64,000 nucleotides of DNA. It comes from Escherichia phage FL31. Both the position numbers and the translations under genes were made by a program. This document shows positions 42,022 to 43,049 of the stretch, in pieces (positions within the stretch are counted from its first letter, which is position 1; every line of letters begins with the position of its first letter). Where the stretch lies: the sequence record PP400782; one strand, given 5' to 3'. The notes below the pieces were generated by a model. That model was not told where the DNA came from, searched no databases, and worked only from the letters and a program-made list of their open reading frames with translations.

Positions 42022-42046
42022 AGCCCCAACCTTTCGGAAGGGGCTA
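42022..42046 (-). terminator. Terminator-like hairpin plus U-run at the distal end of the tRNA/stable-RNA cluster
   Basis: agccccaacctttcggaaggggct preceded on plus strand by aaaaa. Confidence 0.5.
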
Positions 42047-42084
42047 TATACCTTGTCGGGGTTCCACCTGCTAAGGCAAGTGTT

Positions 42085-42179
42085 TGTACGAAACGCCGGG
42101 ATTCGAACCCGGTTATTAAGTAGTTGACGCTACTCAATATTTTTAAAAGGCCATATCTCGACCATATCCGAACGTTCCG
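42085..42179 (-). ncRNA. tRNA-like small RNA candidate (acceptor-like stem and canonical T-arm but no canonical anticodon arm)
   Basis: Minus strand CGGAACG...CCGGG-TTCGAAT-CCCGG-CGTTTCG; about 92 nt; a second stable hairpin GGCATTAA...TTAATGCC lies at 42261-42292. Confidence 0.35.
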
Positions 42180-42347
42180 TCAAAAACGCTACTCGGCTTA
42201 CGGCAAAGATATTTCCTCGAATCGATAATTCGGTGCGCCGTTTCTGCTGTGATATAAGGGGGCATTAACAAAACATAAAGATTTATTAATGCCAGTCCTT
42301 ACTCAGGGAACATCAGTCCGACGACTTACCGGTAGCGACCCGGCTTC

Positions 42348-42692
42348 TTATTTTGGCATATCATCAATTTGCTCTCGACGCCGACGCCATAGATTAATCG
42401 CTTCATAAACACATTCTGCGTTTGGTATATGACGGCAATAATATAATGATTCGCGTTTCTGGAATCGATGTTGCAATGGGATTTCGTTTAAAAGGTCTTT
42501 ACGGTCAAAGTATTCAAAACTAGTTAACCCGGAACGGTTTTTAATGAACTTCCAATGACCAAATTCATTTTGAACATAGATGTAATCTGCATGTTGGTAT
42601 AACAAATTAATCAATCGGTCTGAAATAACTGTATCATGTTCGTTAAAATAAAACGTTAAATCATGAACTACTAAGTAAACATTACCTTTCAT
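42348..42692 (-). CDS. Hypothetical protein between tRNA-Arg and the stable-RNA region
   Basis: ATG at 42692 with GAGGAAA RBS; the longer track ORF would overlap tRNA-Arg. Confidence 0.5.
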   Translation of the reverse strand: MKGNVYLVVHDLTFYFNEHDTVISDRLINLLYQHADYIYVQNEFGHWKFIKNRSGLTSFEYFDRKDLLNEIPLQHRFQKRESLYYCRHIPNAECVYEAINLWRRRREQIDDMPK

Positions 42693-42710
42693 ATTTTCCT
42701 CACTTAAAAT

Positions 42711-42787
42711 TGGTCGAGACAGAAGGATTCTAACCTTCAACCTACGGATTAGAAGTCCGTTGCTCTATACAATTGAGCTATGCCTCG
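42711..42787 (-). tRNA. tRNA-Arg (anticodon TCT)
   Basis: Hand-folded cloverleaf: 7-bp acceptor stem, D stem GCTC/GAGC, anticodon stem ACGGA/TCCGT, loop CTTCTAA, T stem GAAGG/CCTTC, 3' CCA encoded; T-loop TTAGAAT is atypical. Confidence 0.6.
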
Positions 42788-42887
42788 ATGATGCGGCTTT
42801 GGGTGTTTCAGTGTTACTCGTTTGTAGGTTCTACTTTTAACCCTTATTCGAACAACTTACCTACCTAAGAGCGTACTCACCGCGAAT

Positions 42888-42962
42888 TGGTGGCCCTGGC
42901 TGGTTTCGATCCAGCTACCTATCAGTTATGAGCTGACAGCTCTCCCATTGAGCTACAGGGCC
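42888..42962 (-). tRNA. tRNA with CAT anticodon (Met, or Ile if lysidine-modified as in T4 tRNA-Ile)
   Basis: Acceptor GGCCCTG/CAGGGCC, D stem GCTC/GAGC, anticodon loop CTCATAA, T stem GCTGG/CCAGC, encoded CCA. Confidence 0.7.
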
Positions 42963-43024
42963 TAAATAACTTTCTATTATGAAAGGCACTTGAGGGAGCA
43001 CCTTTGGTAATAGAGGGTAGATTA

Positions 43025-43049
43025 ATAATAACACATAATTCTTAAAGCA
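43025..43049 (-). promoter_or_regulatory. Middle-promoter-like element (MotA box + -10) upstream of the tRNA cluster
   Basis: Minus strand TGCTTTA-N12-TATTAT. Confidence 0.45.

Follow-up and report, generated by a model that had tools for sequence, protein, structure and literature searches.

A T4-type tRNA and stable-RNA operon in Escherichia phage FL31 with a predicted tRNA-like rnaC and an inserted structured RNA found in distant phages and bacteria

Organisation of the tRNA and stable-RNA locus

The DNA analysed here is a stretch of 64,000 nucleotides (nt) from Escherichia phage FL31 (record PP400782; the whole stretch is hereafter the window). Between positions 42,022 and 43,049 it holds a small cluster of transfer RNA (tRNA) and stable-RNA genes, including a structured RNA inserted between two tRNAs and, at the distal end, the tRNA-like RNA rnaC. 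All features studied lie on the minus strand and all coordinates are positions in the window. Positions 41900-43200 were 99.8% identical to Escherichia phage vB_EcoM_G2469 (G2469), a T4-like Mosigvirus of the RB69 group, and were also matched by hundreds of Tevenvirinae genomes. Judged from its sequence, the region is a T4-type tRNA/stable-RNA operon of a Mosigvirus, running from a match to a middle-type promoter to a predicted intrinsic terminator. Gene order along the minus strand was tRNA-Ile2(CAU), the inserted RNA, tRNA-Arg(UCU), a small open reading frame (ORF), rnaD and rnaC. The RNA genes are as follows.

42888-42962, minus strand: tRNA with a CAT anticodon, predicted Ile2 type, T-loop AUCGAAA (A54); ARAGORN and Rfam tRNA model, 62.4 bits
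42789-42885, minus strand: insertion of 97 nt between the two tRNAs, relative to most Mosigviruses; comparison with the LF82-1 junction
42711-42787, minus strand: tRNA-Arg(UCU), AGA reader, T-loop UUAGAAU (A56); ARAGORN and Rfam tRNA model, 71.1 bits
42232-42351, minus strand: rnaD ortholog (T4 species 2 RNA), directly upstream of rnaC; aligns with T4 71053-71171
42087-42225, minus strand: rnaC ortholog (T4 species 1 RNA), tRNA-like; aligns with AF158101 70908-71046, 1 difference in 139 nt

The cluster lies in the same neighbourhood and on the same strand as that of T4, downstream of the deoxynucleoside monophosphate (dNMP) kinase region, and shares its order of tRNA-Ile, tRNA-Arg, rnaD, rnaC, hairpin and terminator. 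This combination of two tRNAs with rnaC and rnaD is textbook T4-type content and known biology. The cluster also differs from that of T4. T4 carries eight tRNAs, as an earlier reading made from the sequence alone had stated, whereas the window has two and no segB. The tRNA-Arg of the window is unrelated in sequence to that of T4, an ORF lies between tRNA-Arg and rnaD where in T4 the two genes adjoin, and T4 has nothing that corresponds to the 97-nt structured RNA between the tRNAs.

The RNA inserted between the tRNAs is an acquired module with a conserved core

In the typical Mosigvirus LF82-1 the two tRNAs lie 6 nt apart; relative to this junction the insertion in the window was clean, with a 3-nt TCG repeat, and only about six Mosigvirus records carried it; G2469, mogra and AV118 are Mosigviruses with the insertion. 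When 42770-42905 was used as query, segments of 75-85% identity, all unannotated, were found in unrelated phages. This included T5-like phages of Klebsiella, Pectobacterium and Proteus, the Klebsiella jumbo phages K64-1 and RaK2, Erwinia Vequintavirinae, and T4-like phages of Providencia, Morganella and Pectobacterium, to which a later search added Rhizobium phages and one Erwinia jumbo phage. The closest relatives (~85%) were in T5-like Klebsiella phages. A covariance model of the RNA (R1) scored the window copy at 100.2 bits (match 42792-42884) and found no copy in T4 or the other T4-like loci examined. On these sequence comparisons, the inserted RNA is a module that was acquired horizontally and whose core is conserved.

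Eleven diverse copies made up the covariation set, which gave the following elements.

42879-42883/42793-42797, minus strand: helix P1, which joins the ends; covariation
42869-42872/42816-42819, minus strand: helix Pa (GCUC/GAGU); covariation
42861-42864/42824-42827, minus strand: helix P2; covariation
42850-42853/42828-42831, minus strand: helix P3; covariation
42832-42849, minus strand: 18-nt loop GAAUAAGGGUUAAAAGUA; conserved block
42798-42815, minus strand: 3' strand AACACUGAAACACCCAAA; conserved block

Across the set, 96.9% of cells were paired and 14 of the 18 pairs had changed on both sides, a result matched in none of 500 shuffles (0/500). The covariation score was 0.879 against 0.228 in the shuffles, and controls in which the model was slid along the alignment paired at 25-38%. 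Compensatory changes thus kept the helices in independent lineages; in the copy from Pectobacterium phage PM2, for example, Pa had become GCUG/CAGU. The core common to all copies consists of P2 and P3, the 18-nt loop (GAAYAAGGGUUNANAGUA), Pa and the strand AAC-CCC-GAAA-N-ACCC, the unpaired blocks being invariant. An invariant G.U in Pa and the orientation to neighbouring tRNAs and ORFs place the functional strand on that of the tRNAs.

No known family accounted for these copies. Searches with the 4227 models of Rfam 15, among them ribozymes, riboswitches and phage RNAs, returned no match to the inserted RNA in the window at E up to 10, in nine inserted-RNA loci of both topologies at E up to 1, or in a locus from the candidate phyla radiation (CPR; described below) at E up to 10. 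Core sequence strings had no match in the papers searched, the 8495 unnamed candidates of a 2023 catalogue of viral structured RNAs not having been compared (PMC10690425), and the RNA was unannotated in every record examined. Three specific identities were also considered and rejected. A tRNA, whether decayed or non-canonical, or a member of a known family found no support from ARAGORN or Rfam; RNase P RNA, whose specificity domain the CPR copies recall, was set aside since no RNase P hallmarks flank the copies, which sit in a tRNA-like cloverleaf; and mimicry of 23S ribosomal RNA was not supported, local alignment scores against E. coli rrlH falling within the shuffle range. The sequence-only reading had seen here a 100-nt spacer devoid of tRNA features, possibly a decayed tRNA. 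ARAGORN and Rfam agreed on the lack of tRNA features, but the spacer is not featureless. It is predicted to be a folded RNA with homologs, and the idea of decay falls to the clean insertion relative to close relatives and to the covarying structured homologs in unrelated phages.

The conserved core occurs in three scaffolds

On comparative sequence grounds, the core is found in three structural settings: closed by P1, circularly permuted, or placed within a tRNA-like cloverleaf. The P1-closed form is that of the window, and most copies of this type lie no more than 15 nt from a tRNA gene. In the permuted form, seen in several metagenomic phage contigs, the GCUCUUAGG block is placed after the core and the RNA is closed by another long outer helix, P0; P2 is retained, with five different covarying sequences. 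The permuted copies were not near tRNAs and no consistent neighbouring genes were found around them.

A scan of bacterial genomes recovered six core copies, in five CPR/Patescibacteria metagenome-assembled genomes (MAGs) and one Bacteroidota isolate. In the CPR copies a tRNA-like cloverleaf carries the core in place of its anticodon and variable region. The acceptor, D and T stems of this cloverleaf covary; its D-arm is of Leu type, its T-stem has 6 bp and it has A73. Neither ARAGORN nor Rfam called these copies as tRNA; their T-loop is UGCAAAU. The tRNA-like gene lay immediately upstream of a tsaD-like ORF at 5/5 loci (L094, L095, L096, L098 and L099). The five MAGs are related, and this synteny may not be independent evidence. 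Engineered tRNA scaffolds serve to express RNA aptamers. The CPR form resembles them in that the core replaces a Leu-type anticodon/variable region, an arrangement that would bring in tRNA processing and make the RNA more stable; it differs in being natural.

Four weak covariance-model matches (E 0.1-0.5; L090 5656-5704, L077 7419-7463, L085 4597-4681 and L072 4103-4187) shared GAGUAAC...GAAA...AAG and lacked the P2/P3 arm or the GGG/CCC blocks. They had been preselected by the search pattern and could be minimal relatives or chance.

Possible roles of the inserted RNA

We regard the inserted RNA as a credible new RNA family and likely a new functional RNA, because it is conserved from Enterobacterales phages through Rhizobium phages to CPR bacteria, occurs in permuted form and is carried in a natural tRNA scaffold. 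In the window, the flanking tRNA-processing sites would release it from the operon transcript; elsewhere, an outer helix or the tRNA-like cloverleaf would likewise give a compact, stable RNA. Once freed, the RNA would act in trans, its invariant core binding a broadly conserved cellular partner. That unpaired nucleotides are conserved between phages of enterobacteria and members of the CPR suggests either a universally conserved partner or catalysis; we favour a trans-acting binding RNA, with a new self-cleaving ribozyme as a minority possibility.

GOLLD and ROOL are RNAs of 500-800 nt that form multimeric cages. The inserted RNA is, like them, a phage-borne, tRNA-adjacent structured RNA of unknown function, but its core is only about 75-95 nt and the Rfam GOLLD and ROOL models do not match it. 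Both large RNAs occur in phages, often adjoining tRNA genes (PMC12286853).

The RNA could instead be a mobile module, selfish or neutral, or an element that acts in cis in processing or as an insulator. It would then spread by recombination from one phage tRNA region to another and lack any function in trans. Its distribution fits such a view, being sporadic (about six Mosigvirus records) with the closest relatives in T5-like Klebsiella phages, as does the clean insertion with its TCG repeat, and in T4 and the Dhakavirus AnYang the equivalent place between the tRNAs is taken by a homing endonuclease gene. However, an invariant unpaired core combined with compensatory changes across distant phages and CPR bacteria shows selection on the folded RNA; the terminal helices, unlike transposon ends, are not conserved in sequence, and the element encodes no protein. 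We consider this explanation unlikely.

A new small self-cleaving ribozyme, cutting at or near its own boundary and so separating the neighbouring RNAs, appeared quite improbable. The element is a small RNA rich in invariant unpaired nucleotides, occupies intergenic phage sites on the transcribed strand, and lies 4-13 nt past tRNA 3' ends, where a cut at its 5' edge would free the upstream tRNA. It also recalls hammerhead (types I-III) and twister ribozymes in that the core stays invariant while the open end shifts (P1-open, P0-open and tRNA scaffold), a natural circular permutation. Unlike these, it matches no known ribozyme family in sequence or structure, even at E up to 10 in Rfam, and catalysis stays hypothetical. 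No candidate cleavage site could be named, the CPR form sits in a cloverleaf that host enzymes could process without a ribozyme, and non-catalytic RNAs show circular permutation too.

rnaC is a predicted whole-molecule tRNA mimic

T4 RNAC and RNAD are expressed RNAs of unknown function (PMC3014915, PMC9697503), and for T4 only, a northern blot has shown rnaC as a stable RNA of ~140 nt during infection (PMC9697503). Reviews and omics papers from 2010 to 2025 still call the function of both unknown, and a convergent rnaD single-nucleotide polymorphism arose in experimental evolution on the semi-permissive host ECOR34 (PMC12685909). Positions 42347-42083 of the window aligned with T4 rnaD and rnaC at ~92% mean column identity, the bounds of both RNAs being set by transfer of T4 coordinates, and rnaC lies distal to tRNA-Arg and rnaD and ahead of the cluster terminator, as expected of T4 rnaC. 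The suggestion of the sequence-only reading that the distal RNAs correspond to the small stable RNAs of T4 was thus well founded.

Whilst rnaD was restricted to close relatives of T4, rnaC also occurred in Kagamiyamavirus, Moonvirus, Karamvirus, Gelderlandvirus, Kanagawavirus, Winklervirus, Marfavirus, Mosugukvirus and others, usually within a tRNA array, between tRNA-Trp or tRNA-Phe and tRNA-Gly. In the Dhakavirus AnYang (L008 1501-1680), rnaC was precisely missing, and the post-rnaC hairpin and the terminator come straight after rnaD; as with segB in T4, a homing endonuclease gene separates the CAT tRNA of AnYang from its tRNA-Arg. Scans of IMG/VR and metagenomes for rnaC gave few copies, mostly near-identical.

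Covariation over 22 distinct rnaC sequences from about 12 genera gave the following elements.

42218-42224/42089-42095 (rnaC positions 2-8/131-137), minus strand: acceptor stem, 7 bp; covariation
42215-42217/42148-42150 (rnaC positions 9-11/76-78), minus strand: helix II, 3 bp; covariation
42184-42188/42173-42177, minus strand: hairpin A, loop UUGACG (42178-42183); covariation
42130-42138/42115-42123, minus strand: hairpin B, loop CGUCAA (42124-42129); covariation
42096-42112, minus strand: T-arm CCGGG-UUCGAAU-CCCGG; covariation

The model also includes a loop-loop helix between hairpins A and B (UUGACG/CGUCAA). Over the 22 sequences, 92.1% of cells were paired and 17 pairs had changed on both sides; none of 500 shuffles reached the covariation score and slid controls were only 32-47% paired. 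The unconstrained minimum free energy fold of the window sequence had the same architecture (z = -4.6). Individual changes were consistent with the model. At 4:135 the T4 group has A-U where all others have G-C. Phage PM2 has U-A pairs instead of the conserved tandem U.U of the acceptor and U-A instead of A9-U78, and its 3' strand is followed by U-CCA. In Marfavirus, which also encodes U-CCA, UUGACG/CGUCAA has changed to UUGGCG/CGCCAA, a compensatory loop-loop change. On this evidence rnaC is a predicted whole-molecule tRNA mimic of 139 nt, complete with acceptor helix, T-arm and discriminator U; the place of the D-loop would be taken by a long arm and that of the anticodon or variable arm by a second one, the tips of the two arms pairing together.

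Such tRNA-like domains are known in transfer-messenger RNA (tmRNA), in the bacterial Y-RNA YrlA and in the 3' tRNA-like structures of plant viruses. With these, rnaC shares an acceptor-type helix formed from both ends, stacked on a T-arm with the loop UUCGAAU, a discriminator and, in two lineages, CCA. It differs in having no Rfam match to the tmRNA, YrlA or tRNA models and no coding region, in the conserved tandem U.U of its acceptor, and in its two arms with a 6-bp loop-loop contact in place of an anticodon arm. No canonical cloverleaf with a 7-nt anticodon loop was found by ARAGORN or the Rfam tRNA model in 42085-42225 or 42788-42887.

The perfect T-arm noted in the sequence-only reading was present. 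The acceptor-like stem of 7-8 bp it had proposed (42173-42180/42088-42095) can indeed pair in the window, but it is not the conserved pairing, covariation favouring the 5' and 3' ends. The proposal was of a tRNA-like unit at 42085-42179, whose acceptor would combine the internal segment ACGGAACG with the 3' strand, next to a spacer that would be a decayed tRNA, and we give it almost no credence. Although the 8-bp pairing is present in both the window and T4, is used in the only, weak tRNA-type alignment of the region (Rfam tRNA-Sec, 17 bits, E = 3.3), and although ARAGORN calls the equivalent region of phage G4507 a 94-nt tRNA-Lys, rnaC positions 46-53/131-138 showed no covariation, one position was unpaired in 13 of the 22 sequences, and a G.U in T4 is an AxC mismatch in EcS1. 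Moreover, the internal segment is non-complementary to the 3' strand in Gelderlandvirus, Kanagawavirus and Marfavirus, where the 5' end stays complementary and covaries, and in the covariation model positions 46-53 form the 3' strand of hairpin A. The spacer, for its part, is absent from close relatives and its structured homologs have no tRNA features.

Three smaller points concern rnaC sequence. In Kosakonia phage Kc304 (L036 ~220-375) the T-loop is UGCAUUC, against an otherwise invariant UUCGA(A/G)(U/C). The linker of T4-group rnaC, CCUUUUAAAAAU, includes CUUUUAA, the sequence of the tRNA-Lys anticodon loop, but the triplets at this place differ in other genera. The tRNA-Lys(ttt) of 94 nt that is annotated, and called by ARAGORN, in the 3' region of G4507 rnaC (MK327946; L009 1664-1757) follows a 1-nt deletion in the A-run.

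The rnaD ortholog was near-identical to T4 in its 5' and 3' parts and divergent at its tip. It is predicted to fold into a 5' hairpin (CCGGG-GUCGCUA-CCGG) and a long irregular hairpin (z = -3.7), and this architecture was constant in four versions whose long-hairpin tips, though always hairpins, were unrelated in sequence. An 8-bp hairpin picked out earlier at 42261-42292 exists and is the tip of this long hairpin.

A joint model of the operon

By analogy with T4 biology, host RNase P and the enzymes of 3' processing would cut a polycistronic transcript to give stable RNAs, and rnaC may itself be a substrate of tRNA enzymes, undergoing RNase P cleavage, 3' trimming and CCA addition. Its location in tRNA arrays, the CCA encoded in two lineages and its canonical T-loop all suggest that it is handled by such enzymes. 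The role we prefer for it is that of a decoy, occupying a host factor that binds tRNA. Overall, we think it probable that the locus combines a T4-type RNA operon, an rnaC that mimics tRNA, and an inserted, trans-acting structured RNA that occurs in three scaffolds.

Several observations weigh against this model. For the inserted RNA, the single-sequence fold was no stabler than shuffles (z = 0.02) and the covariation in Pa came from the PM2 copy alone. A further pairing between loop and 3' strand (GGGUU with AACCC or ACCC) showed no covariation, its segments being invariant even in copies outside the pattern-selected set, and in the window copy the strand reads AACAC. Partner binding is a role that we infer only, and since most Mosigviruses lack the insertion, the window copy may be a passenger of no benefit to the phage. 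For rnaC, the kissing-loop contact had a single compensatory event in one clade, and helix II showed covariation in PM2 alone. Positions 46-53 of the T4 group can also pair with the 3' strand in a thermodynamically competitive way, and an alternative conformer is possible. CCA addition is conjectural, since the T4-group sequence reads U-ACA instead of U-CCA and the annotated T4 RNA stops at UA.

A bolder version, which we put forward only tentatively, holds that the inserted RNA is an undescribed class whose ~60-nt core was captured independently by three scaffolds and either self-cleaves or binds a universal translation or tRNA component, with rnaC acting as a decoy through its kissing arms. 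With a true acceptor, kissing loops, CCA in some genera and embedding in tRNA arrays, the rnaC model is a useful refinement that offers a concrete tRNA-mimic hypothesis and, if the decoy role is true, a testable role for the 50-year-old species 1 RNA. Near-isogenic natural phages with and without the inserted RNA provide an easy experimental handle.

The two tRNAs would read AUA and AGA

ARAGORN called two tRNAs and no more across the 64-kb window, Arg(tct) and the tRNA with the cat anticodon, and Infernal with the Rfam tRNA model accepted both. The same two cloverleafs, and the non-canonical T-loops UUAGAAU and AUCGAAA seen in the Rfam tRNA-model alignments, had been recognised in the sequence-only reading. 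Both T-loops were unchanged in LF82-1, a relative that lacks the insertion, and tRNA-Arg was identical there; as they are identical in relatives, the atypical loops are not signs of decay. The D-loop of tRNA-Arg has U at the position of G19, matching A56 of the T-loop, and the A56/U19 combination reads as a compensated elbow pair.

ARAGORN named the CAT tRNA Met, a label it also gave to T4 tRNA-Ile. The 5' half, GGCCCUGUAGCUCAAUGG, was identical to T4 tRNA-Ile, and the acceptor (GGCCCUG/CAGGGCC) contains C4:G69 and C5:G68, the acceptor determinants by which TilS tells tRNA-Ile2 from tRNA-Met. The only matches in E. coli genomes were prophage genes with CAT that PGAP annotates as tRNA-Ile. An initiator tRNA-fMet, which would be marked by a C1xA72 mismatch and an anticodon stem with three G:C pairs in a row, was ruled out by the paired G1:C72 and by an anticodon stem (GUCAG/CUGAU) that is not GC-rich. 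With its CAU anticodon, TilS pairs, homology to known tRNA-Ile(CAU) and lack of initiator features, the CAT tRNA is, on sequence criteria, of the Ile2 type, an ortholog of T4 tRNA-Ile and a predicted reader of AUA via lysidine rather than a tRNA-Met. The label Met in public records would be better replaced by Ile2.

Of the Arg codons in 75 ORFs of the window, 21% were AGA, and of the Ile codons in these ORFs, 19% were AUA. AUA and AGA are the codons worst decoded by E. coli, and the retention of just these two tRNAs therefore makes sense: they would provide readers for codons that the host decodes poorly yet the phage uses heavily.

Promoter, terminator and neighbouring elements

The remaining features of the cluster are as follows.

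43025-43049, minus strand: MotA-box/-10 promoter-like site of the T4 middle type (TGCTTTA-N12-TATTAT), upstream of the cluster; consensus match only
42348-42692, minus strand: 114-amino-acid (aa) ORF, phrog_3355, between tRNA-Arg and rnaD; no Pfam domain
42065-42082, minus strand: conserved hairpin CACUUGC-CUUA-GCAGGUG, between the rnaC 3' end and the terminator; read from sequence
42017-42044, minus strand: intrinsic terminator, GCCCCUUCC-GAAA-GGUUGGGGC then U6, closing the cluster; read from sequence

The promoter and the terminator that the sequence-only reading had placed at either end of the cluster were both recovered. The candidate middle promoter at the cluster start has the MotA box, spacing and -10 sequence of the pattern searched (MotA box TGCTTnA, a gap of 11-13 nt and -10 TAnnnT), which occurred 15 times in the window against 3.3 expected, a 4.5-fold excess; none of 100 shuffles (0/100) got to 15. 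The minus strand held 11 of the 15 matches, the others there including 4551-4575, 4768-4791, 5964-5988, 9964-9987, 16482-16507 and 27962-27987. A terminator is annotated at the counterpart of 42017-42044 in MK327934, a 99.8% identical record. A simple sigma-70/terminator scan overlooked it owing to two U.U mismatches in the stem, and was uninformative at this locus. The hairpin at 42065-42082, common to T4 and kept in AnYang, where rnaC is absent, may be a processing or stability element.

The TAA stop of the 114-aa ORF overlaps the first bases of rnaD. This ORF was found in G2469, G4507 and LF82-1 and not in T4. Upstream of the tRNA pair, most Mosigviruses have an ORF of ~171 aa (LF82-1, L092 247-762), and its absence from the window accounts for the observed ~400-bp difference in length.

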